From the NCBI GenBank assembly GCA_964429225.1, contig CAYSAW010000006.1, positions 89,559-153,558 on the forward strand: a stretch of 64,000 nucleotides of DNA, given 5' to 3'. Source of the DNA: an uncultured bacterium. Lineage in GTDB: Bacteria > Armatimonadota > DTGP01 > CAYSAW01. The notes under the pieces are model-generated. The model was not told where the DNA came from. It was given only the letters and a program-made list of their open reading frames with translations, and did not search any database. This document shows positions 45,639 through 57,180 of this stretch, piece by piece (within the stretch, counting starts at the first letter, position 1; every line of letters starts with the position of its first letter). Made by a program: the position numbers and the translations under genes.

Positions 45639-47645
45639 TTAGGAACCGCATTTACATTTGCATCGAGAGGGTTCCAAGGTGCTTAAAGGCTCCAGATAGG
45701 CTTCCGTTCTTTTGGCGATTTCTTGGAACCATTCGCCATTGGGAGTTGTGAGGAGAAACCACCAAGCGGAAGGCCGGTAGTGGGTTCTCTCCAACCCTTC
45801 AACGGTGAGAAGGGCATCTCTGACGAGTTCCACTTTGATCCGGTGGGCTTCCAAGTCTAGAGTTTTCATTTGTTCCCGATCTGCTTTAATTTGGGGATCG
45901 GAGAGGAGGCGGTGGCGTTCTTCTCTCAGCTTTTGAATTTGTGCGGAATAATCCCGAATTTGTTGGTGGAGGGCTTGCCATTGGGTATCAAAGACTTTTC
46001 TCCTTTCCTGATGGGATTGGATTTCTCTCCGAAGCGCTTCTGCTTCTGGGGTATGGGATTGTTTTTGAGCCTCTAGTTCCAGCAATCGTTCTCGGAGAGG
46101 CATTACCAAGGCTCTCCAATCCCGGCCCTTCTCTCGAGCGATGGCTTCGGACTCGGCCTTCAGGGCTTTGATCTCCCAAAAGAGGCGGTGGATCTCATCT
46201 TTTAGGGCTTGAAGACGTTTACGAAGCTGGAGGATTCTCTGCCGGCTCTGGGCATATTGCTCTTTCTTGGCAGTCCATTCTTCAGGTATCCAGTTTGCCA
46301 AGAGCTGGATGAGGTCCCAGGGGCTTCGGGCCTCCTTCAGTTGGAGGAGGCGTTGTTGCTGAGATCGCCTTACTTGGCGCCAGGAATGGGCAAACTCTTC
46401 GGAAGTAATTTCTTTCTTACCGAAAGCGCGTGCGAGGTGGGGAGGGAGCCGAAAGAGGGCTTGGGTAGGTCCTACAGCGTCCCAGGTGGGATAGCGTAAG
46501 CGCAGGATGGGGTGAAGAGGGAAAGGAACCCCTCGCTGAGCAAGGGCCTGAGCCATCTTTCGAGTGCGCCATACATAAGAGGAACCAAGTTCGTTAAGAA
46601 CTACAATGAACTCACTGGCCATCATCGCGATCAGGACAACTGCTTTCCCCACCAAGGCGATTGCTTGGCCCAGGTTTTGTTCCAAGATTTCTGCGAGGTC
46701 GCAGACATTGAGGACGTCTTCCCTTGTTTTTAGGTAGAGAGGTTCATCACCAGCGATAACAATCTTTCTAGGGAGAAGGCAGAGAGTGCCGCGTCCATAT
46801 CCGGGGATGACTACATCGAAAGGGAGGGTTCCTGGGCCAAACTTATCGAGGGTGTAAATCTCGGAGCCTGCCACTGCTTCATTATAGCTCTCGCAGTAGA
46901 GGGATCGGGTAGTAGGGTTGAGGAAGCGTTGAAGGAGGAAGAAGCGAGGAGCTCGGCAGGTTTCTCGGTTAAAGCGGAACAGATCGCTGGATAAACCGAT
47001 TCTTACTCCCTCCAAAGGAGCTTGGGTAAGGGATTGGAGGAGGAATTCTGCCAAGTGGAGGTAGAGGTCTGTGAGTTTGGCTTCGGGGTGGGCTTGGGCG
47101 AAATCTTGAACCCTTTGTAAAAATTGCTCGGCCCATTGCCGAGACTTTTCAGGGGAGGGGCCGAGGAGGGATTCCAGGGATGCCTCTAAACCCCAGCGTA
47201 GCAGATCCATCAATCGGGGGAGTACCGCTTTTAGAGGGACTTCTCCTGCCAGCAGGCGTCGGGAGCCAGTGAAAACCAAGCCCCTCCACCCCCAGGCTTC
47301 CGTAATTCGATCAAGAAAGGCGTCGCGCCCTTCGGGGGAGGTCCGGGCCACTTTTTCCACCTGGGCGTTATAAGCGGTTAATTTTTCTCGAGTGGGAAGG
47401 GTTTCGCTCCCGAAGAGTTGGGAGAGTTCTCCGGTGGCTACCCACAAGTCCCGGGTGCTATGGTCGTTATGAGGAAGGATCTCAAACTCATCTTGGCCGG
47501 GATGTCCGGTAGGAGACTTAGAGAAGTAGTCTGTATCCATTACCCCCATCCAAAAGGGGGCGGGGTAACCTACCTCTCGAAGGGGTTCCAGAAGGACTGC
47601 TTTAGTTGGTTCATCCCAGAGGACCGTTTGGCCCAGGGCGACCAA
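45639..47645 (-). CDS. Hypothetical 668-aa protein with long C-terminal coiled-coil
   Basis: Coding-like composition. No recognisable catalytic motif. C-terminal heptad-rich region (…LQLRKRLQALKDEIHRLFWEIKALKAESEAIAREKG…) ends in CKCKCGS. Confidence 0.45.
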   Translation of the reverse strand: MVALGQTVLWDEPTKAVLLEPLREVGYPAPFWMGVMDTDYFSKSPTGHPGQDEFEILPHNDHSTRDLWVATGELSQLFGSETLPTREKLTAYNAQVEKVARTSPEGRDAFLDRITEAWGWRGLVFTGSRRLLAGEVPLKAVLPRLMDLLRWGLEASLESLLGPSPEKSRQWAEQFLQRVQDFAQAHPEAKLTDLYLHLAEFLLQSLTQAPLEGVRIGLSSDLFRFNRETCRAPRFFLLQRFLNPTTRSLYCESYNEAVAGSEIYTLDKFGPGTLPFDVVIPGYGRGTLCLLPRKIVIAGDEPLYLKTREDVLNVCDLAEILEQNLGQAIALVGKAVVLIAMMASEFIVVLNELGSSYVWRTRKMAQALAQRGVPFPLHPILRLRYPTWDAVGPTQALFRLPPHLARAFGKKEITSEEFAHSWRQVRRSQQQRLLQLKEARSPWDLIQLLANWIPEEWTAKKEQYAQSRQRILQLRKRLQALKDEIHRLFWEIKALKAESEAIAREKGRDWRALVMPLRERLLELEAQKQSHTPEAEALRREIQSHQERRKVFDTQWQALHQQIRDYSAQIQKLREERHRLLSDPQIKADREQMKTLDLEAHRIKVELVRDALLTVEGLERTHYRPSAWWFLLTTPNGEWFQEIAKRTEAYLEPLSTLEPSRCKCKCGS

Positions 47646-48407: not shown

Positions 48408-48437
48408 TTGACAAAAATTTCTCAAGTTGCGTAAAAT
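48408..48437 (+). promoter_or_regulatory. Sigma70-like promoter (TTGACA-18-TAAAAT) upstream of ccoN operon
   Basis: TTGACA at 48408-48413, an 18-nt spacer, and TAAAAT at 48432-48437, about 60 nt upstream of the ccoN start. Confidence 0.5.
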
Positions 48438-48496: not shown

Positions 48497-49879
48497 ATGT
48501 GGAAGAGACTCTTTAGCGATGAGGAATATTCTTCAGCCCGGAACTGGCTTTATTCAGCAGCGGGATGGCTTTTAGTTGCTTTTACGATGGCTATTATCCT
48601 GGCCATCAAATTTGTTTATCCCACTTTTTTGGGAGAGCATCCCTGGCTTCAGATGGGTCGGATTCGCCCTATTCACGTGAACACTGCCGCCTTCGGTTTT
48701 CTCTCTATGGGGTTAGTAGGTTCTATCTTCTATATGATTCCCCGGCTGACCGGCGTTCCCTTATATAGTGAGCGGCTGGGGAACTTCACTTGCTGGATTT
48801 GGAACCTGACAATGGTGTTGGCGGTATTGACCTTGGCAACGGGGCATACCGAAGGGCGTGAGTATGCGGAGTTGATTGCTCCTTTAGATTGGCTAGTGCT
48901 TGCTGGGTTGATTGCGATTGCTTATAATGTATTTGGGACCATTGCCCGCAGGCAAGAGAAGCAGTTGTACATCTCCCTTTGGTACTGGATGGGGACGATG
49001 ATTTGGTTTCCCCTGGTTTTTATCATTGGGAATCGCACTTTTGTCCGTTTGTCGGGGTTGAATGACGCTGCGGTGAACTGGTTTTATGGGCACAATGTCC
49101 TCGGCTTATGGTTCACCACCTTAGGGGTGGGAGTAGCTTATTATTTAATCCCGATTATCAGTCGAAATCCCCTCTTCTCTCATAAGCTCTCTCTGATTGG
49201 TTTTTGGACCATTGCGATGGTTTATGCTCCTACCGGAGCTCATCACCTTCTCCAAGCTCCTATTCCCGAATGGTTGAAGAGTGTGGCGATTGTCTCTAGC
49301 TTGCTTCTTCTCATCCCTGTGGCGGCTGCGGTAACCAACTTCCTGGCGACTTGTAAGGGTAAATGGGATGTTGTCCTCAGTAATATCGCCCTGCGTTTTA
49401 CGGTGACGGGAGTGATTTGGTATCTGGTAACCTGTGTGCAGGGGCCTTTGCAAGCCAGCCGGCCAGTAAACTGGTATATTCACTTCAGTAACTGGGTGGT
49501 GGGACACGCTCACGTAGCTTTGCTTGGCTCTTTCGCTTACTTTGTCTGGGGGGCTTTCTATCATATTATTCCGAGAATTACAGGGAAAGACTGGTACAGC
49601 CGGCCTCTTCAGGAAGCTCACTATTGGTTAACCACTTTGGGTTTCTTCTTCTTCTTCTCTGCTTTGACTATTGCGGGGCTCCAACAGGCGGCGATGTGGC
49701 GGGAGAATGTCGGCTTCTTAAAAGTGGTCATCGCAATGAAGCCGATGATGGTTCTCCGGATGTTGTCCGGCGCTGCTATGGTCGTTGGTCAGTATATCTT
49801 TGTGTATAACCTCTATCGAACCGTTACTGCTCGAGCCGAAGTTCCTGAGGAGGCGGTAGCGGTTCCTGCCCGGGCCTAA
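48497..49879 (+). CDS. ccoN: Heme-copper oxidase subunit I, cbb3-type (CcoN-like)
   Basis: Twelve TM helices. His ligands are at canonical HCO positions: helix II RPIHVNT, helix VI WFYGHNVLGLWF, helix VII GAHHLLQ and helix X WVVGHAHVALLG. A CcoO-type subunit follows immediately. Confidence 0.85.
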   Translation: MWKRLFSDEEYSSARNWLYSAAGWLLVAFTMAIILAIKFVYPTFLGEHPWLQMGRIRPIHVNTAAFGFLSMGLVGSIFYMIPRLTGVPLYSERLGNFTCWIWNLTMVLAVLTLATGHTEGREYAELIAPLDWLVLAGLIAIAYNVFGTIARRQEKQLYISLWYWMGTMIWFPLVFIIGNRTFVRLSGLNDAAVNWFYGHNVLGLWFTTLGVGVAYYLIPIISRNPLFSHKLSLIGFWTIAMVYAPTGAHHLLQAPIPEWLKSVAIVSSLLLLIPVAAAVTNFLATCKGKWDVVLSNIALRFTVTGVIWYLVTCVQGPLQASRPVNWYIHFSNWVVGHAHVALLGSFAYFVWGAFYHIIPRITGKDWYSRPLQEAHYWLTTLGFFFFFSALTIAGLQQAAMWRENVGFLKVVIAMKPMMVLRMLSGAAMVVGQYIFVYNLYRTVTARAEVPEEAVAVPARA

Positions 49880-49906
49880 GAAAGAAGGGGAGGCAGTAAA
49901 GAATCT

Positions 49907-50965
49907 ATGACGGGGCCACAAACTTACGGAGTTGGAATTGTTGCTGTTGCGGTACTCTTCGTCCTGATCTATGGATGGATGGTTTATAAGAGTACCCGCC
50001 ATGCTCTCGTTTCGGTGGTCATTATTGGGTCGGTGTTCATCTTTGCCGCGGTCGTTTTTGGAACGATCGTCCTCCCTTATATCACCTTTCAGCCAGCCCC
50101 TTCTCCAGGAATGAGGCCTTACACTCCTTTGGAGCTCATCGGGAGGGATATTTATCGCCGAGAGGGTTGCTGGTATTGCCACAGCCAGTTTACTCGTCCC
50201 CAGGATCGGGACTTCGGTCTTCCTTCGGATGCGGGGGATTATGTTTACGATAGCCCTCACCTATTAGGCACGGAGCGGACAGGGCCTGACCTCTCGAATA
50301 TCGGGGGTAAGTTCCCGGATGAGTGGCACCGGATTCACCATCGGGATCCCCGGGCGGTGCAGCCGGGTTCAATTATGCCCTCCTTTGCTTATCTTGACCG
50401 TGCTTGGGCTTCTCCGGACCCTAATGATAAGCGTTTTTGGATCTACGATCCCAAGGAGGGCCGGATGCGACGAGCCACGGAGCTGGATGCTCTAGTGGCC
50501 TACCTTCAGAGTCTGGGGACGCGGCGGGAGAAGGTTCGTTTGACCACTGAGCCGGAGATTCCCAATGAGTATCGCTTCCAGTATCTTCCCAAAGAGGGGC
50601 GTTATGTGGAGCGGAGGGCACCAGATGCCATCCCCTTTAAGCTCCGGTTCGTGAAGCAGGGTCAAGGAATTTATAATGAGAAGTGTGCTCCGTGCCACGG
50701 ACCTAGGGGTTATGGCAACGGTACCAATGCCCGAGATCTAGTGGTCAAACCTGCTAACTTCCATCTCCCTCAATTTAGAAATTATTCTGAAGCTAAGTGG
50801 TTCTGGAGGATTAGTGAGGGGGTCCCGGGAACGAGAATGCCACCCTGGCAGTTCACTCTGACGGAGGAACAACGATGGTATCTCGTCCGCTGGCTTCAGT
50901 TCCTCTCCGGGTCCTACCGAGACCCTAAAACGGGGGAGCGTGTTCTTATACCACCTAGAGGTTAA
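49907..50965 (+). CDS. ccoO: cbb3 oxidase monoheme subunit CcoO fused to an additional C-terminal monoheme cytochrome c domain
   Basis: N-terminal TM. The FixO/CcoO signature REGCWYCHSQFTRP…GPDLSNIGGKFPDEWHRIHHRDPRAVQPGSIMPSFAYL is present. A second heme site, CAPCHGPRG, lies in the C-terminal 120 aa. Confidence 0.8.
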   Translation: MTGPQTYGVGIVAVAVLFVLIYGWMVYKSTRHALVSVVIIGSVFIFAAVVFGTIVLPYITFQPAPSPGMRPYTPLELIGRDIYRREGCWYCHSQFTRPQDRDFGLPSDAGDYVYDSPHLLGTERTGPDLSNIGGKFPDEWHRIHHRDPRAVQPGSIMPSFAYLDRAWASPDPNDKRFWIYDPKEGRMRRATELDALVAYLQSLGTRREKVRLTTEPEIPNEYRFQYLPKEGRYVERRAPDAIPFKLRFVKQGQGIYNEKCAPCHGPRGYGNGTNARDLVVKPANFHLPQFRNYSEAKWFWRISEGVPGTRMPPWQFTLTEEQRWYLVRWLQFLSGSYRDPKTGERVLIPPRG

Positions 50966-50970
50966 CTCTT

Positions 50971-51246
50971 ATGATCAAGCGATATACTGGTGTGCTCACA
51001 ATGGCCTTGATGAGTGGAGTGGTCAAAGCCCTTGCGGATCGTCCTCCGGAGGTTGCCGATAAGCTGAACTTTGACCCTGGTCCTTCAGTGGTTTTGGTAT
51101 CTAGTATGCTTGGAATCTTTGCGGTGGTGGGAATCGCTGGGTTGTATTGGGCCTACCGTCATGGCCAGTTTAAGGAGGTAGAGGAGGCCAAGTATCGGAT
51201 GCTTGATGTGGAAACCCGTTACCCTGTTAAGAAGACGGGAAGGTGA
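50971..51246 (+). CDS. Small single-TM protein, CcoQ/FixQ-like
   Basis: TM helix VVLVSSMLGIFAVVGIAGLYWAY followed by a charged tail (RHGQFKEVEEAKYRML) resembles FixQ. The true start may be an internal Met. Confidence 0.35.
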   Translation: MIKRYTGVLTMALMSGVVKALADRPPEVADKLNFDPGPSVVLVSSMLGIFAVVGIAGLYWAYRHGQFKEVEEAKYRMLDVETRYPVKKTGR

Positions 51247-51261
51247 CAAGGTGAGTTTTGA

Positions 51262-51552
51262 GTGATTCAAGGAGGTTGCAGGATGGCCGAGGAAAGGAAG
51301 GAATCCCAGGAAGAGCAGAAGAGTAACGGACCTGTTAAGGCAATTAAGCAGGCAGCCGAAGCGATTGAGCAGGAGGTTAAAGGGGAAATTGCTGATGAGG
51401 AGCACCAGATGGGCCCCTTTAAACACCCGGAGTCAGTAATGGTAGCAGGCATCGAGGAGCGGGTAGGAGTTGTTCCTAAATGGTTAGTTTATATCTTTGT
51501 GGGGATCTTGCTGGTTGCTGCTGTTGCGTGGGTGAGGATCTATGGATACTAA
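51262..51552 (+). CDS. Small C-terminally anchored membrane protein
   Basis: Acidic N-terminal region and a single C-terminal TM (WLVYIFVGILLVAAVAWV). It lies within the operon. Confidence 0.3.
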   Translation: MIQGGCRMAEERKESQEEQKSNGPVKAIKQAAEAIEQEVKGEIADEEHQMGPFKHPESVMVAGIEERVGVVPKWLVYIFVGILLVAAVAWVRIYGY

Positions 51553-52639
51553 GATGAGGCAAAAGATATTCTTAGGTTTAGGTTTGTTTCTCCTCTTTGG
51601 ATCTTGGGGGATTCTAGGAGGGTGTAGTTCCCGAACCCAGTTGTCAGTAAAGACAACCGAACAACCTGTCCTCACTAAAGTGTCTCAAGAGCGCTTGTCT
51701 TTCCAAAATCAAGCTGCAGCCAGCCCGGATGTTAAGGAGCTGAGTGCTATTCCTCAGGTCTCTTTGGATCCCGAGAAGGCGAAACATACTCCTTTAGAAC
51801 AACGAGAAGATGGAGAAGCAGTCTACCTCAAGTTTTGCGCTAGTTGTCATGGTTCCAATGGTGAAGGAACTCCTCAGGTTCCTCGCCCTAACTTTAAGGA
51901 CCTCGATTATATGAGGGAGGTTACCCCTTTGGGGTTGTTTAACGCAATTAAATATGGGAAGAAGGTGAACTTCCCTCACTATAAAGGGATTCATCATCGC
52001 CACGAGCAAGAGTTAGCCACGAATCTGGAGGAAGAGATCCTTCCTGAGGGTCGGCATGAGTTTGGGGGAAGAGGTCGGGCCTTACAGGCTCAGAATAAAC
52101 AACCCTTATCCAATCAAGAGATCTGGAATGTAGTGATGTACCTCTTCTTCCAGTCTGCTGCCAAAGATAAGCAGGATGTCTACCGCCAGATCCTTAAACT
52201 GGCTGGTCCGGACAAAGCGAAGGAAGTTTTGAAGCCGGAAAACACTTTTCCTGTGGCTGTAGTGATGTTAATGAGCGCCCAAGGTGCTTTATTTGACCGC
52301 AATTGCTCCGTCTGTCATGGGAAGCGAGGACAAGGAGATGGCAACCTCGCTCGTACCTTGGAGCCGAAGCCGAGAAACTTTACCGATTTTGGTTGGATGG
52401 CTGACAAGTCCCCCAGTCATCTGTTTTACAGTATTACCTTTGGTCGAAGATATACCGCAATGCTGGCTTGGGGAGATCGCTTGGGAAATCACTTCCCTGG
52501 GGATCCCGAACTACCGGGGGATCAGAAGATCCGGGCTCACGATTTATCTTTGACCGATGAGGAGCGGTGGGCCATTGCGAATTATCTCCGAGCTTTTACC
52601 TATGAACCACCTCGAAGGATTGTTGTAGAAGCGCAGTAG
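51542..52639 (+). CDS. Diheme cytochrome c lipoprotein (CcoP-like)
   Basis: Lipoprotein signal with lipobox LGGC. Two CxxCH sites: CASCHGSNGEG and CSVCHGKRGQGDG. Confidence 0.75.
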   Translation: MDTKMRQKIFLGLGLFLLFGSWGILGGCSSRTQLSVKTTEQPVLTKVSQERLSFQNQAAASPDVKELSAIPQVSLDPEKAKHTPLEQREDGEAVYLKFCASCHGSNGEGTPQVPRPNFKDLDYMREVTPLGLFNAIKYGKKVNFPHYKGIHHRHEQELATNLEEEILPEGRHEFGGRGRALQAQNKQPLSNQEIWNVVMYLFFQSAAKDKQDVYRQILKLAGPDKAKEVLKPENTFPVAVVMLMSAQGALFDRNCSVCHGKRGQGDGNLARTLEPKPRNFTDFGWMADKSPSHLFYSITFGRRYTAMLAWGDRLGNHFPGDPELPGDQKIRAHDLSLTDEERWAIANYLRAFTYEPPRRIVVEAQ

Positions 52640-52654
52640 CTCAATGGAGGAGCT

Positions 52655-53353
52655 GTGATGAATAGAAGAACTCTCTTTCTCCGATTTCTCAACTGGGTTG
52701 CTGGTTTACCCGTGGTCGTTGGATTACTGGCAGCTATTTCTCCGATTCTGAGGGTTTTGCGTCCCACTCTGCAACCCTTTCAGTTCAATCAACCCCCGGA
52801 CCCTCCTCCGGGCGAACCTCAGGTTGTAGGGAATATCAGTGAGTTTAAGGAGGTATGGGCTTATAAGTCTTTTTACTTTGTCCAGAGAAACCGGGAGTAC
52901 TCCCCCCGGAGAGTGAATGAGAGTTTGATTGCGGGCTTTGCGGTCCGTTTGCCTCAAGATGTGGCCCAAAAGGCAGGAGATTACATCGCTGCTTCTGCTC
53001 AAAGTCCAGAGCAGAAGGCCACTGCTGAGGCGATCCGTAAGACGGGAGTTATGCTCTTCAGTCGGATTTGCCCTCACTTAGGGTGCAACTTTAATTACTT
53101 CCCTCCGGAGAAGTCGGAGAAGGTACGTGCCGATTACAATTACTCCGGTGCCCAAAGTGACCGGGCCTATTTTGCTTGCCCCTGCCATTTCAGCACGTAT
53201 GACTTAAAGCAGTTCCAGGATGTGTTGGGGCAGATGAAGCTGGGGAAAGTGGTCAACGGCCCTGCCCCTCGTCCTCCTCGTACTTTCACCTTTGAAGTAA
53301 GGGACAACGGAGATATTGTGGTTACAGGAGTGGAGGCTGGCGGTGTTGCGTAA
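52655..53353 (+). CDS. Rieske [2Fe-2S] iron-sulfur protein, TAT-exported
   Basis: Twin-arginine signal MMNRRTLFLRFLNWVAG. Rieske boxes CPHLGC and CPCHFS. Confidence 0.8.
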   Translation: MMNRRTLFLRFLNWVAGLPVVVGLLAAISPILRVLRPTLQPFQFNQPPDPPPGEPQVVGNISEFKEVWAYKSFYFVQRNREYSPRRVNESLIAGFAVRLPQDVAQKAGDYIAASAQSPEQKATAEAIRKTGVMLFSRICPHLGCNFNYFPPEKSEKVRADYNYSGAQSDRAYFACPCHFSTYDLKQFQDVLGQMKLGKVVNGPAPRPPRTFTFEVRDNGDIVVTGVEAGGVA

Positions 53354-54809
53354 ACGAGCTCGAGAATTGTGGGAAACCTTTACTACCTGGTACGCCGAAC
53401 AAGGGGAAAAACTAGACTTATTCGACGAGACCGAAGTAGAACGGCAGAGAGAATCCCCTTGGTTCCTGATGGGACCAATGGCCTATCTCTTCTGGATTGC
53501 TACCATCGTTACCGGTTTCTTTCTGGTGATCTATTATATTCCTACTCCGAGCAGAGCCTGGAATAGCCTAGGGTACATCCAAAATGAGGTTCCCCTAGGA
53601 TGGCTTTTTCGGGGAGTGCATAAATACGCTGCTGATGCCTTTATTATCGCCATCACGATGCGTATCTACCGGATGTACTTCACTGCTGAGTACCGTCGGG
53701 GGAAGCAGCTCACCTGGATAGTGGCTATCCTCCTCTTGGTCTTTGGGATGTTTTCAGGCCTTACAGGGTATCTACTTCAGTGGAATCAACGGGCTTACTG
53801 GGCAACAAAAGTCTTCGGAACTTTCCCTACTTACCTCAATGAGCCTTATATCCCCCATTTGAATATCGGTCGAACCATCTCTTCCATCCTTCTTGGAGGG
53901 CCTGCTATCGGCCCTGCGACCATCACCCGGTGGTATTCCGGCCATTACGCTCTGTCTCTGATCTTGCTCATCCTGGCTGAATTGCATTTCCAGCGGCTGG
54001 GATGCAAACGTTTGAATATGAGCCGGTTCGCTATTTTCATTACCCTTCTGATCCCTACTGCGGTAGCAACAATTATCCCCAGCCCTATGGGCCGTCCTGC
54101 AGACCCTAGCACAACCCCTGAAAGGATTTTCTCTGACTGGTACTTCTTAGCGCTTTACCATACTTATCGAATTATGGATCCCTTCTGGGCCACTTTAATG
54201 ACCGTATTACTGCCTCCGATAGCTTTTGCAGTGGCCTTCCTGGATAGGCGCGGTACTCGCGAACCCTTAGGCCGGCCTTTCGTCTTTCTCTTCGGTTTGC
54301 TCTGTATCTTCTACTGGTTGGGGTTCTCTACTTTGCTTATTATGAACATTGCAGATATTAACCGAAACCCCATCCAGTTTATGACGGTAGCGGCGATGAT
54401 GACCATTGTTGCGGCCCTTTGGCAGGTGGTTCATTCGGCTCGGAGGCCTTGGGAAACCCGGCCTTTCCCAGAGGCGATGGATGGTGTTGTTTTAGCCTCT
54501 TGGTTCCTTTGGGGGGTCAATGTACACCATCTCTTTGAACTGGTGCGGAGAGGGGGCTTCTCTCATTTGGCTCGTTTCCCCAATGATATTGCGATGTTCT
54601 TTGTCCTAGGAACAACCTCCCTTATTCTTTTGGGGTTGTCCCTTTACGATATTCGCCGGGCCAAGAAGGGAGTATCCGCCCCGGAACGCCCTGCTGTTTC
54701 AGCGGAGCCTCCTTCCATCGGTTTGCCCGGCCGTTATGCAATGCTGTATCTGGCTGTCTTCTTCTGTGTTATGTTGATCGCCGGTTTTGGGCTTATCGCG
54801 GAGTTCTGA
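53316..54809 (+). CDS. Cytochrome b (long form, b + subunit IV fused) of a Rieske/cyt b complex
   Basis: GYLLQWNQRAYWATKVFG matches the cyt b PEWY-region neighbourhood. Helix D has H-x13-H (HYALSLILLILAELH). Helix B has H-x13-R (HKYAADAFIIAITMR), so one canonical His is replaced by Arg (codon CGT at 53661-53663). The probable start is GTG 53343 (GGAGG SD), giving an 11-nt overlap with the Rieske gene. Confidence 0.8.
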   Translation: MWLQEWRLAVLRKRARELWETFTTWYAEQGEKLDLFDETEVERQRESPWFLMGPMAYLFWIATIVTGFFLVIYYIPTPSRAWNSLGYIQNEVPLGWLFRGVHKYAADAFIIAITMRIYRMYFTAEYRRGKQLTWIVAILLLVFGMFSGLTGYLLQWNQRAYWATKVFGTFPTYLNEPYIPHLNIGRTISSILLGGPAIGPATITRWYSGHYALSLILLILAELHFQRLGCKRLNMSRFAIFITLLIPTAVATIIPSPMGRPADPSTTPERIFSDWYFLALYHTYRIMDPFWATLMTVLLPPIAFAVAFLDRRGTREPLGRPFVFLFGLLCIFYWLGFSTLLIMNIADINRNPIQFMTVAAMMTIVAALWQVVHSARRPWETRPFPEAMDGVVLASWFLWGVNVHHLFELVRRGGFSHLARFPNDIAMFFVLGTTSLILLGLSLYDIRRAKKGVSAPERPAVSAEPPSIGLPGRYAMLYLAVFFCVMLIAGFGLIAEF

Positions 54810-55095
54810 GGCAAGGATGAGGTTTCGCTATCATTATTGGATCTGCTTTATCATCGCCACTTTATCCCTCAGCCATCTCTTTGCGGTTTATCGGCAGGTA
54901 GTGGAGGGGTCTTCCCCTTTACTCTGGCCCCTCCTCCGAGGGTTGTTGGCCCTGACCTTAATGGTTCTCTGCTTCTTTCTGATGGGCTTAGACCTCTATG
55001 CCCGCGAGAAGAGGAGAGGGCAGATTCAGCATACCCTCTCTTTTTATGAAAAGATTTTAAGTAAACACGATAAAGGGGAGCGTACAAAGGGATGA
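54787..55095 (+). CDS. Small 2-TM membrane protein
   Basis: Hydropathy only. It is within the operon, tightly packed, and overlaps its neighbours. Confidence 0.3.
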   Translation: MGLSRSSEARMRFRYHYWICFIIATLSLSHLFAVYRQVVEGSSPLLWPLLRGLLALTLMVLCFFLMGLDLYAREKRRGQIQHTLSFYEKILSKHDKGERTKG

Positions 55096-55397
55096 AAAGA
55101 GAACCTCCTTGGTTTCGCCAGCTGATGATCTTGTTTTGGGGGCTTTGTTCCCTCTTAAGCCTTGTCCTGGCTCTCTGGATGGCCAAAATTGAACTACAAT
55201 CTGCCTTGCCCCAGGATCCTAGAACTAAAGGAGTGGTGACTAATATCCCCAGCGAACTTCTGCGTCAGCGTCGAGAGCAGTGGCAAAGGAATAGTATTCT
55301 GATAGGAGCCCTTTTTCTGACCTCTGCCTTTGGTATGCTAGCGGTCAAATGGTATGAATATCCCGGGCCTGTAACTCGCCCGGAAGAAGAGTCGTGA
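55092..55397 (+). CDS. Small 2-TM membrane protein
   Basis: Hydropathy only. It overlaps its neighbours by 4 nt and 1 nt. Confidence 0.3.
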   Translation: MKREPPWFRQLMILFWGLCSLLSLVLALWMAKIELQSALPQDPRTKGVVTNIPSELLRQRREQWQRNSILIGALFLTSAFGMLAVKWYEYPGPVTRPEEES

Positions 55398-55398
55398 T

Positions 55399-56676
55399 GT
55401 GGAGCCTTTTATCATTCGCTGGGACTTTTCAGTCTGGAATGATCTGGAAACTAACCCATTCCAAGAGGTGACCTATATGTACCGTAAGTTTCTGGACCTA
55501 ACTCTTAAGACCTGGCATTGGTTGGATCGTGCTTGCAACGCCCTTTTCCCTCACAACTGGAACCCGATGTACTACCTGGGAGGCATAACCAACCTCTATA
55601 TGTGGGTGTGTATGATTTCAGGGGTGATACTTTTTCTCTATTACACTCCCAGTCTTACCGAAGCGTATAAAACGGTCCGATTTTTCACTGAAGAAGTGCC
55701 TTATGGTGTGGTAATGCGAGGGATCCATCGCTATGGTGCGGATGCAATGATGCTGTTCTTGCTCCTCCATATGTTCCGCACCTGGTTTACTTATCGTCAT
55801 AGCAAGTTCCGAATGGTGGCTTGGGTCTCCGGGGTTATCCTCTTTGCCCTAACCCTTTTGATTGGGGTAACTGGATATATTATGCCCTGGGACTTACGGG
55901 CGCGTTTCCTTAATGATGTTACAGTTTCGGCTTTCCACACCCTGGACACTTTGCCAGTTTTAGGAGCTTTGGGAGTAGGAGCTTGGCTAGGGAATTTCTT
56001 CCAGGGGGGATCGGTTATCAGCGACTTTACTTTAACTCGATTTCTCTTCTTCCACATCACCTTTGCAACAGCTTTGTTCTTCTTCCTTTGGATGCACTAT
56101 ATTCGGATCAATCGGCCCATTGTTTACCCTCCTGCTCTGCTTACCATTGGTTTGATTGGAGCAGTTTTGGTAGCTGCTGGGGCCTCCCCGGCTCTGCTCA
56201 GTGCAGAGGGGCCTCCTGCTCCAACAGGAGTTGAGCCGGTTTTACAGGTTTCTAATGTGCCGATGGATTGGTTCTTTCTCTTTGGTTACCACTTTATGTC
56301 GGTCATCCCACCGGTCGTGGTTTTAGGATTGTTTGTTCTCGTTTTCCTCGGTTTGTTCCTCGTTCCTTACTTCTTGAAAGAGGATTACCGAAACGTGGTT
56401 GTTGTTCATCCGGAGCTTTGTACAGGTTGTACCCTGTGTGCTGTGGATTGTCATGCGAATGCTATTATTATGGTGCCGATGCCGGGAAAGAAGCGGGGAC
56501 GCAACTTACTGGCTAAGGTGATTGCTCCTCGCTGTGCGGAGTGCGGTATTTGTGTGGGTTCCTGTGCTTTTGGGGCCATTGAGTTGCCTTTGCTACCCGA
56601 TAAGGTGATTGAAAACCGGATCTTTGCCGCCTTAGCTCCTTCAACGACTTCATCGGAGTCTCAAGTAAAAGCTTAG
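55399..56676 (+). CDS. Cytochrome b fused to C-terminal 2x[4Fe-4S] ferredoxin domain
   Basis: Cyt b core with both His pairs intact (HRYGADAMMLFLLLH and HITFATALFFFLWMH, each H-x13-H) and PWD in place of PEWY. The C-terminal 90 aa carry CTGCTLCAVDCHANAI and CAECGICVGSCAFGAI, two CxxCxxCxxxC clusters. Confidence 0.8.
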   Translation: MEPFIIRWDFSVWNDLETNPFQEVTYMYRKFLDLTLKTWHWLDRACNALFPHNWNPMYYLGGITNLYMWVCMISGVILFLYYTPSLTEAYKTVRFFTEEVPYGVVMRGIHRYGADAMMLFLLLHMFRTWFTYRHSKFRMVAWVSGVILFALTLLIGVTGYIMPWDLRARFLNDVTVSAFHTLDTLPVLGALGVGAWLGNFFQGGSVISDFTLTRFLFFHITFATALFFFLWMHYIRINRPIVYPPALLTIGLIGAVLVAAGASPALLSAEGPPAPTGVEPVLQVSNVPMDWFFLFGYHFMSVIPPVVVLGLFVLVFLGLFLVPYFLKEDYRNVVVVHPELCTGCTLCAVDCHANAIIMVPMPGKKRGRNLLAKVIAPRCAECGICVGSCAFGAIELPLLPDKVIENRIFAALAPSTTSSESQVKA

Positions 56677-56739
56677 AAGAGAGGCGATAGGTTGTTAGCA
56701 TAGCTTCAAAAGAATTTCTGACTTTAGGATGAGGAGAAG

Positions 56740-57180
56740 ATGGCTGAGGAACCTCGGATTATAGGCTTTGTCTGTGATTGGGCTGTCTCCACGGAGGGCG
56801 AGCTCGACGAGAACAACAACCTCAAGGCTTTGCCTCACGTTAACATTATTAAGGTACCCTGTTCCGGTTACGTGAAGAGCGAGTGGCTGGAACTAGCCTT
56901 AAGAAGCGGTGCTAAGGGAGTTTTCGTCGTCGGTTGCCCTATTATCGACTGCCACTACCGGGAGGGGAATAAGTGGGTTCGAGACCGGGTTCGGATGATT
57001 CGTCCTCCGAAGCTGAACCCACGCCGAGGAGGAGATCCCAACCGGGTGAGATGTTTCTTCCGGCAGTTGATTGAAACTTCCTCGCTTATCGAGGATTTGA
57101 AACAGTTTACCGAGGAGCTGAAGGAATACGAGGCGAGTCTTGTTCGGAATTCAGCTCCTGCACAGCCAGCACAAAAATAG
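56740..57180 (+). CDS. MvhD/FlpD-like iron-sulfur protein (methyl-viologen-reducing hydrogenase delta-subunit family)
   Basis: IIGFVCDWAV…VPCSGYV…VVGCPIIDCHYREGN matches the Cys pattern of MvhD-family [2Fe-2S] proteins. Confidence 0.65.
   Translation: MAEEPRIIGFVCDWAVSTEGELDENNNLKALPHVNIIKVPCSGYVKSEWLELALRSGAKGVFVVGCPIIDCHYREGNKWVRDRVRMIRPPKLNPRRGGDPNRVRCFFRQLIETSSLIEDLKQFTEELKEYEASLVRNSAPAQPAQK

Follow-up and report, generated by a model that had tools for sequence, protein, structure and literature searches.

In a 64,000-nucleotide stretch of contig CAYSAW010000006.1 from an uncultured bacterium of the Armatimonadota (hereafter the window), a gene for a cytochrome b (cyt b) fused to a ferredoxin domain with two [4Fe-4S] motifs (cyt b-Fer4) is followed by a gene for an MvhD/FlpD-like protein. 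A first-pass annotation of the DNA had suggested that this pair is a membrane module for electron transfer between quinol and ferredoxin. Its description of the two genes is confirmed in each detail that can be checked, and its interpretation is supported in part. We find instead that the pair makes up two of the seven conserved genes of a Rieske/cyt b complex, adjoining a gene for a second cyt b that is bH-less, i.e. without the ligands of haem bH. The first-pass annotation had missed this property of the neighbour, which alters the mechanism. With slightly better than even confidence, we read cyt b-Fer4 and MvhD as subunits of the Rieske/cyt b complex (complex III) of this lineage and not as a separate module. 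The pair belongs to a known, uncharacterised clade and is here part of a new variant of the Rieske/cyt b complex with two unequal cytochromes b; what is new is the context, a fixed module with a bH-less partner, the combination of cyt b, 4Fe-4S and MvhD being already in print.

A conserved seven-gene module

The same genes occur in the same order in all ten operons compared: Rieske protein, bH-less cyt b, two small proteins, cyt b-Fer4 and FlpD, headed by a dihaem cytochrome c gene upstream of the Rieske gene, with genes that often overlap. Operons in the window, L001, L004, L005 (partial) and L009 were reached via cyt b-Fer4, and those in L011, L012, L093, L094 and L095 independently via the bH-less cyt b. 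The Rieske gene is present in all ten of these operons, in which cyt b-Fer4 and MvhD are encoded by two genes (the two-gene type), and in every module the two small-protein genes lie between the two cyt b genes. In particular, no oxidase adjoins the module in L011, L012, L093 and L095 (4/10), indicating that the module belongs to the bc genes and not to the oxidase. Some of the loci have a cbb3 oxidase upstream, and others have cytochrome c maturation genes and a cupredoxin gene and no oxidase. The named sources of the module are Armatimonadota metagenome-assembled genomes (MAGs) and one genome labelled Chloroflexi.

The small cupredoxin gene lies 3' of FlpD in three operons without an adjacent oxidase (L011 13679-13936, L012 13409-13798 and L095 9667-9936), and the cupredoxin might serve the complex as an alternative acceptor of electrons.

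A companion cytochrome b predicted to lack haem bH

The companion cyt b of the window carries Arg116 in place of the helix-B histidine that ligates haem bH in canonical cytochromes b. Among its 120 best homologues, this position is occupied by Arg in 118 and by Lys in 2, and the helix-D bH position by a non-ligand residue (Phe, Leu, Tyr, Gln or Arg) in 104; the subclade of the window retains the helix-D histidine. The helix-B bL histidine is 100% conserved by column count, as is the Qo motif SDWYF; for the helix-D bL histidine, a pattern that presupposes this residue matched 118 of the 120 sequences. The de loop is very short; the canonical cyt b aligned alongside has a long de loop and a histidine at both bH positions. 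On this pattern of residues, the companion cyt b is predicted to have a Qo site and haem bL and to have lost haem bH. In a published survey of cyt b, sequences without any one of the four histidines were discarded, and Pyrobaculum alone was reported to lack one (PMC4122944); this remark is all that our literature searches turned up on a natural bH-less cyt b.

A rough neighbour-joining tree (no bootstrap) groups cyt b-Fer4 with relatives in which cyt b, Fer4 and FlpD form one polypeptide (triple fusions, described below), and the companion cyt b with canonical cyt b. Because the tree puts each in a different group, the two cytochromes b do not appear to be recent tandem duplicates, and an origin of cyt b-Fer4 as a recent copy of its neighbour is not supported by it.

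The cytochrome b-ferredoxin fusion

Residues 49-237 of cyt b-Fer4 match the Pfam Cytochrome_B model (PF00033) with 109.3 bits (cut-off 27.2), and the protein matches cyt b6 chains with E = 1.5e-30. Helices B and D each carry a pair of the four axial histidines, spaced 14 residues apart; the second histidine of each helix ligates bH (PMC4122944). H110, H124, H219 and H233, together with the eight cluster cysteines, are invariant in a 26-member family alignment, and the four haem histidines are kept in 92/92 homologues (42 two-domain and 50 triple-fusion proteins; column counts). The complete four-histidine core and the two CxxCxxCxxxC motifs described in the first-pass annotation are both present, the motifs being CTGCTLCAVDC at residue 341 and CAECGICVGSC at residue 379. 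Pfam models of dicluster ferredoxins match residues 333-395 marginally (Fer4_9, 28.0 against a cut-off of 27; Fer4_6, 25.4 against 25). The protein is predicted to bind haems bL and bH and two [4Fe-4S] clusters. Profile searches for both cyt b domains and Fer4 recovered the N-terminal cyt b domain and the ferredoxin domain, but the C-terminal cyt b domain (PF00032, helices E-H) gave no match.

A model of cyt b-Fer4 predicted by AlphaFold 2 (AF2) from a 26-sequence alignment (predicted local distance difference test score, 87.9; predicted template modelling score (pTM), 0.85) comprises helices A-D, the cd helices, E, ef and F, followed by a beta/alpha ferredoxin domain. Foldseek aligns this model with bc1 cyt b over ~300 columns, and in both analyses only E, ef and F precede the ferredoxin domain. 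The Foldseek matches of the window-protein and triple-fusion models are cyt b chains only and are uninformative on the iron-sulfur (Fe-S) arm. The equivalent of the Qo motif is MDWF, in which Pro is absent; in the two-gene type the Asp (Asp290) is 100% conserved and the Trp 55% conserved. Furthermore, the GY..WD of the cd region is invariant, the de loop is ~10 residues long, and an invariant acidic residue (D/E43) and an invariant Asn (N47) lie on the n-side N-terminal helix of the family. The cysteine of the haem-ci motif CxGG (Cys35; PMC4122944) is not present in cyt b-Fer4: Tyr59 aligns with it, and the position is Tyr or Phe in 42/42 homologues. A haem ci, or a b6f-type n side, was rejected for cyt b-Fer4 because the CxGG cysteine is missing.

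The ferredoxin domain is predicted to be cytoplasmic, as the first-pass annotation had placed it, because helix F of cyt b starts on the p side and ends on the n side, and the domain begins 15 residues later. Consistent with this topology, Lys and Arg account for 10 of 86 n-side residues versus 4 of 110 p-side residues, and no twin-arginine motif precedes helix F. A periplasmic Fe-S domain exported by the twin-arginine translocation (Tat) pathway, as in dual Sec-Tat families (PMC5449189), was rejected on the missing twin-arginine, the n-side end of helix F and the charge bias.

A frameshift or misassembly that joined cyt b and ferredoxin was likewise rejected, since a protein 100% identical to the 425-residue cyt b-Fer4 is present in an independent assembly (P0001) and the fusion recurs in hundreds of homologues. 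Specifically, homology listing gave ~45 two-domain homologues, and a full scan of 1.84 billion representatives gave 188 representative clusters (50% identity, E <= 1e-30), nearly all matching across both domains. Translation probably starts at ATG 55477 (M27), giving 399 residues, because a strong Shine-Dalgarno sequence, AAGAGGTGA (55462-55470), lies 6 nucleotides upstream and the N-termini of homologues begin there.

The MvhD/FlpD-like protein

The product of the following open reading frame (ORF, 56740-57180) matches FlpD/MvhD (PF02662) with 92.1 bits (cut-off 22.3), in agreement with its first assignment, and matches solved MvhD-related chains with E = 1e-17. Orthologues and the fused domains of triple fusions share its residues C12, C41, C66 and C71, and the second cysteine of the usual CxWC is missing. 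The protein is a predicted [2Fe-2S] carrier, which would be cytoplasmic since it has no hydrophobic segment. A functional link between MvhD and cyt b-Fer4 is supported by the occurrence of both in the same polypeptide in ~50 of the homologues listed. The long MvhD tail of L009 was rejected as a functional clue, being low-complexity Ala/Pro/Val sequence.

Usual partners of MvhD/FlpD are the Mvh/Vhu hydrogenase, formate dehydrogenase and HdrA, a subunit of heterodisulfide reductase (Hdr). A motif scan of all ORFs of the window, with Pfam searches on ten flanking ORFs, recognised no hydrogenase, no Hdr and no further protein with an Fe-S motif, and no hydrogenase or Hdr partner was seen in related operons either. 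The shuttle role between hydrogenase and Hdr that the first-pass annotation gave for the MvhD family is therefore inapplicable here. In the HdrA2 model NF040770, the Fer4 domain matches positions 573-642 and MvhD positions 645-771, with scores far below the family cut-off, and in the triple fusion P0070 the two match the model as a single stretch. Because they match consecutive parts of the model, the Fe-S arm (Fer4 and MvhD) resembles a captured HdrA2-type tail, to which it is probably homologous.

Triple-fusion relatives

The ~50 triple fusions among the homologues listed are 510-740 residues long, and AF2 predicts a natural triple fusion to be a compact unit (pTM 0.82). A scan with an alignment of the fusion type found them encoded in at least 560 metagenome loci. 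Sixty of the metagenome loci scored had 3 kb or more of flank; the neighbours within 6 kb of the triple fusion in these are SCO1 (49 loci), COX1 (45), COX2 (35), haem O synthase (22) and Rieske (2). Almost all of these genes share the strand of the fusion, and SCO1 most often lies directly next to it. Some loci also adjoin genes for a P-type ATPase or PCuAC, and in one cluster (P0316) SCO1/SenC (residues 47-180) is N-terminal to cyt b (280-459) and Fer4 (552-610). In long fusions (P0070, P0049, P0059 and P0067; loci L006, L008 and L010), FlpD is followed by a seventh membrane helix and by a periplasmic domain of ~130 residues, which is rich in beta structure and has a semi-conserved PGxH motif and no Pfam match; several of these proteins end in a cytochrome c domain. 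By analogy, this context suggests a reductase that passes electrons from the cytoplasm to copper or SCO1 in the periplasm, or else a protein that supplies the oxidase with electrons without a Rieske partner.

Genes for cytochrome cd1 nitrite reductase and NnrS lie near some triple fusions (L008 17116-21725, L010 648-2285 and 7/60 metagenome loci), so some of the adjacent COX1 genes may encode nitric oxide reductases.

The operon in the window

Eleven genes on the forward strand (48497-57180), from ccoN to mvhD in the order of Table 1, are separated by intergenic gaps of -38 to +63 nucleotides, and a 321-nucleotide gap 3' of mvhD closes the run. The fusion gene is embedded in an aerobic respiratory operon, as had been proposed, with genes for a cbb3 oxidase and for Rieske/cyt b. 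The cbb3 oxidase genes (48497..51552) are predicted from this layout to be co-transcribed upstream of the bc genes, and the dihaem cytochrome c lipoprotein is the probable cytochrome c1 equivalent of the complex. Homology of the small membrane proteins to those of Chloroflexi loci was rejected, the Chloroflexi ones being monohaem cytochromes c.

Table 1. Features of the operon and of the cyt b-Fer4 gene, in window positions
Feature	Position	Strand	Basis and remarks
Promoter-like site, possible operon promoter	48408..48437	+	TTGACA, 18-nucleotide spacer, TAAAAT; 11/12 consensus match only; upstream of ccoN
ccoN, cbb3-type oxidase	48497-49879	+	Pfam/NCBIfam profile matches
FixO fused to cytochrome c	49907-50965	+	Pfam/NCBIfam profile matches
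FixS-like ORF	50971-51246	+	Pfam/NCBIfam profile matches
FixP_N-like ORF (weak match)	51262-51552	+	Pfam/NCBIfam profile matches
Dihaem cytochrome c lipoprotein	51542..52639	+	Two CxxCH; profile matches
Rieske iron-sulfur protein	52655..53353	+	Twin-arginine N-terminus; CPHLGC...CPCH; weak Pfam and NCBIfam matches; orthologues
Companion cytochrome b, 497 residues	53316..54809	+	N- and C-terminal cyt b domains; Arg116 at helix-B bH position
Small two-helix membrane protein 1	54787..55095	+	24-34% identity across module; no Pfam family
Small two-helix membrane protein 2	55092..55397	+	Position and two-helix layout conserved, sequence weakly; no Pfam family
cyt b-Fer4 fusion gene	55399..56676	+	425 codons from GTG 55399; likely start ATG 55477
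Cytochrome b four-helix core, residues 49-237	55543..56109	+	Ligands H110/H219 (bL), H124/H233 (bH); Tyr59 at haem-ci Cys position
Helices E and F with ef loop	56110..56394	+	AF2 secondary structure, Foldseek, column counts; MDWF in loop; helices G and H absent
2x[4Fe-4S] ferredoxin domain, residues 333-395	56395..56583	+	C341/344/347/351 and C379/382/385/389; 15 residues past helix F
MvhD/FlpD-like protein	56740..57180	+	PF02662 match

Several side features of the oxidase genes were also seen. In the window, a class I cytochrome c is fused to FixO in place of a separate CcoP, and the FixS-like maturation ORF and the weak FixP_N-like ORF are located within the cbb3 structural operon. In L094 (1-1385; GCA_020725105.1), genes for CtaA (haem A synthase) and UbiA (haem O synthase) are divergent from the cbb3-bc operon; cbb3 does not use haem A. 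In Acidobacteria MAGs, a full-length cyt b, FixO (cbb3 subunit II family) and cytochrome c occur in one polypeptide (P0101, P0105, P0115 and P0116), a physical link of bc to cbb3. Elsewhere in the window, a 668-residue ORF on the reverse strand (45639-47645) has no Pfam family at E <= 0.001 and a C-terminal third rich in Glu, Arg, Lys and Gln.

Comparison with known systems

Kao & Hunte (2014) named fusions of cyt b, 4Fe-4S and MvhD the 'PDWF-FeS clade', with their function untested there; no Rieske was found in the gene clusters, and the conclusion was only that cyt b can join other complexes (PMC4122944). One such fusion protein also appears in an appendix table of neighbouring genes in a 2022 Chloroflexi paper. 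The view of the first-pass annotation that the architecture is uncharacterised stands in so far as our literature searches found no functional study of it, but as an architecture it had already been noted in print. The window type has the same domain order as the clade (bc-type cyt b with a Qo region, 2x[4Fe-4S] and MvhD) and 25-35% identity across cyt b and Fer4. It differs in having a gene of its own for MvhD, MDWF in place of PDWF as the Qo motif and, in every case, a Rieske protein and a bH-less cyt b, whereas the clade was described without Rieske. Unlike the long fusions, the window type has neither a seventh helix nor a periplasmic domain.

The module shares with bc1 and b6f the Rieske protein, a c-type cytochrome, the bL/bH four-helix bundle and the Qo region, and the fold of cyt b-Fer4 aligns over helices A-F. 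Unlike bc1 and b6f, it has two different cyt b genes, one without bH ligands and the other without helices G and H and with Fe-S clusters, and its n-side de loops are very short, so that a classical Qi is doubtful; the haem ci cysteine of b6f is absent from cyt b-Fer4. The link of the window operon to a cbb3 oxidase recalls the bc1-cbb3 supercomplexes. Engineered, cross-inactivated bc1 dimers are comparable in that a monomer without a working n-side half forces the crossing from bL to bL (PMC7908018, section 3.3). Those dimers are single-gene laboratory constructs, whereas the asymmetry of the window complex would be natural, two-gene and conserved in a lineage.

By analogy, the anammox Rieske/cyt b complexes (Kuenenia Kuste4569-4574 and Kustd1480-1485; PMC12954380) appear to be the nearest proposed counterpart, with an n-side Fe-S chain that is proposed to divert the low-potential electron from Qi. 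Their chain ends at FAD/NAD(P) on a separate subunit, and their cyt b is homodimeric with haem cN (PMC12954380). In the window, by contrast, the chain is attached by gene fusion to a second cyt b and its last cluster is the [2Fe-2S] of MvhD, with no flavoprotein gene nearby.

QmoABC of sulfate reducers likewise combines a membrane dihaem cyt b with an Fe-S domain in the cytoplasm, both in QmoC, has an MvhD-like domain in QmoB, and links menaquinone to cytoplasmic redox chemistry; the QmoC cytochrome, however, is of the HdrE/NarI type, and Qmo has HdrA-like flavoproteins, no Rieske and no Qo. The C-terminal tail of HdrA2 (NF040770) has ferredoxin and MvhD consecutively, as does the Fe-S arm of the window, which is without the HdrA flavin domain and HdrBC; what the MvhD tail does in HdrA2 itself is given as unknown (PMC6019823). 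CcoG/FixG is also a membrane protein with two cytoplasmic [4Fe-4S] motifs that is encoded with haem-copper oxidase genes. It has no haems, and its sequence shows no kinship to that of cyt b-Fer4 beyond the ferredoxin motifs; Pfam FixG_C matches neither cyt b-Fer4 of the window nor the long fusions.

Proposed electron flow and alternative explanations

In the complex that we favour, a dihaem cytochrome c, the Rieske protein, the bH-less full-length cyt b (Qo and bL), two small subunits, the six-helix cyt b-Fer4 (bL and bH) and MvhD would be assembled together. The bH-less cyt b would oxidise menaquinol at its Qo site, from which the first electron would pass through the Rieske protein and cytochrome c to the cbb3 oxidase, and the second would reduce haem bL. 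A cyt b with Qo and bL only has no other outlet for the second electron, which would thus have to cross the bL-bL bridge to bL' of the partner cyt b-Fer4. From there it would move to haem bH', the two [4Fe-4S] clusters and the MvhD [2Fe-2S], with an exit in the cytoplasm; candidate end acceptors are a quinone at a rebuilt n-side site and a soluble low-potential carrier. We propose that the two cytochromes b pair because the bH-less one lacks an exit and bL-bL transfer is established in bc1, where it has been documented on catalytic time scales (PMC7908018). A bolder version appears unlikely to us: a natural bc complex that is obligately asymmetric and without Qi would send the second electron via bL-bL, bH and three Fe-S clusters to a low-potential carrier in solution, for example ferredoxin or NAD(P)+, through a further partner, making quinone-based bifurcation that yields cytoplasmic reductant the normal complex III of an aerobic lineage.

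Several points weigh against the shared complex. Every mechanistic step that goes further than sequence, topology and gene linkage is one that we infer, including haem and cluster occupancy, the pairing of the two cytochromes b, the subunit stoichiometry, the end acceptor and the direction in which electrons move. The ORF scans of the window found no gene nearby for an acceptor of MvhD. Cyt b-Fer4 may have a working Qi at its haem bH, which would make the Fe-S arm a side branch or an input. As the companion cyt b of the window retains the helix-D histidine, a five-coordinate haem is conceivable in its subclade. Finally, the triple fusions occur without Rieske and a bH-less cyt b and adjoin genes for COX1/COX2, SCO1 and haem O synthase; this context, together with the SCO1 fusion, points to a maturation-type role for the shared core.

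Such a role would be that of an oxidase-maturation reductase, in which a cytoplasmic donor passes electrons through MvhD, Fer4 and the b haems to Cu(II) or SCO1 outside, in analogy to CcoG or to the eukaryotic FRE/NOX dihaem reductases. It would account for the neighbours counted at the 60 triple-fusion loci, for the P-type ATPase and PCuAC genes that adjoin some of them, for the SCO1-cyt b-Fer4 fusion, for the seventh helix, periplasmic domain and occasional cytochrome c of the long forms, and for the FixS-like gene in the window operon; a precedent is the membrane protein CcoG, which has two [4Fe-4S] motifs and whose reduction of Cu(II) serves the assembly of cbb3 (PMC8267372). For the window type we rate it lower, and as rather unlikely, because the module follows Rieske/cyt b, including in the four operons that have no adjacent oxidase, because no copper genes are found in the window (SCO1, ccoI, PCuAC and haem O synthase were looked for), and because the bH-less partner would be left unexplained. 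Moreover, the window protein has neither the seventh helix nor the periplasmic domain, and no FixG_C or other CcoG-specific Pfam match.

The Fe-S arm might also run inwards, the reverse direction for which the first-pass annotation had allowed, with a cytoplasmic reductant, for instance ferredoxin, feeding MvhD, Fer4 and haem bH and a quinone being reduced at a retained Qi, comparable to the proposed ferredoxin route into cytochrome b6f. Ferredoxin-type clusters are typically lower in potential than b haems, so that electron flow in this direction would be downhill, and the invariant D/E43 and N47 on the n-side helix could line a quinone site. MvhD is elsewhere an adaptor that docks different donors (PMC6019823). 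Nevertheless, this single Qi would also have to be the only exit for the electron that leaves Qo in the bH-less cyt b, ~10 residues remain of the de loop, which in canonical cyt b forms the lining of Qi, no donor gene was found nearby, and the organisms, which seem to live much like aerobic heterotrophs, would have no evident use for it; we hold an input arm to be improbable. Still less probable are two merely co-transcribed complexes, a haem-poor Rieske/cyt b and an independent homodimer of cyt b-Fer4 with MvhD acting as a Rieske-less quinol-linked dehydrogenase. The triple fusions do occur without Rieske or a second cyt b, so that the core can stand alone, and in the rough tree cyt b-Fer4 groups with them and not with its neighbour. 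However, a bL-only cyt b would be a dead end, without an outlet for the second quinol electron, and the 10/10 co-occurrence, the overlapping genes and the two small subunits that always lie between the two cyt b genes also argue for a single complex.

Significance

For annotation, more than 120 'cytochrome b' entries are without haem bH ligands, and several hundred entries named 'hydrogenase iron-sulfur subunit' represent fusions with cyt b that are encoded in oxidase operons. The bc complexes are treated as symmetric homodimers, and the physiological meaning of the bL-bL bridge between their monomers has been called 'unclear but intriguing' (PMC7908018). The bridge appears compulsory here, one cyt b being without bH and the other without the full Qo/C-terminal half, and a purified complex would test transfer between monomers without engineered mutants. 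The complex would also show whether the low-potential branch from Qo can be diverted to cytoplasmic Fe-S clusters. Such diversion has so far been proposed only for the anammox complexes, which are hard to handle, and the aerobic Armatimonadota would offer an easier model.

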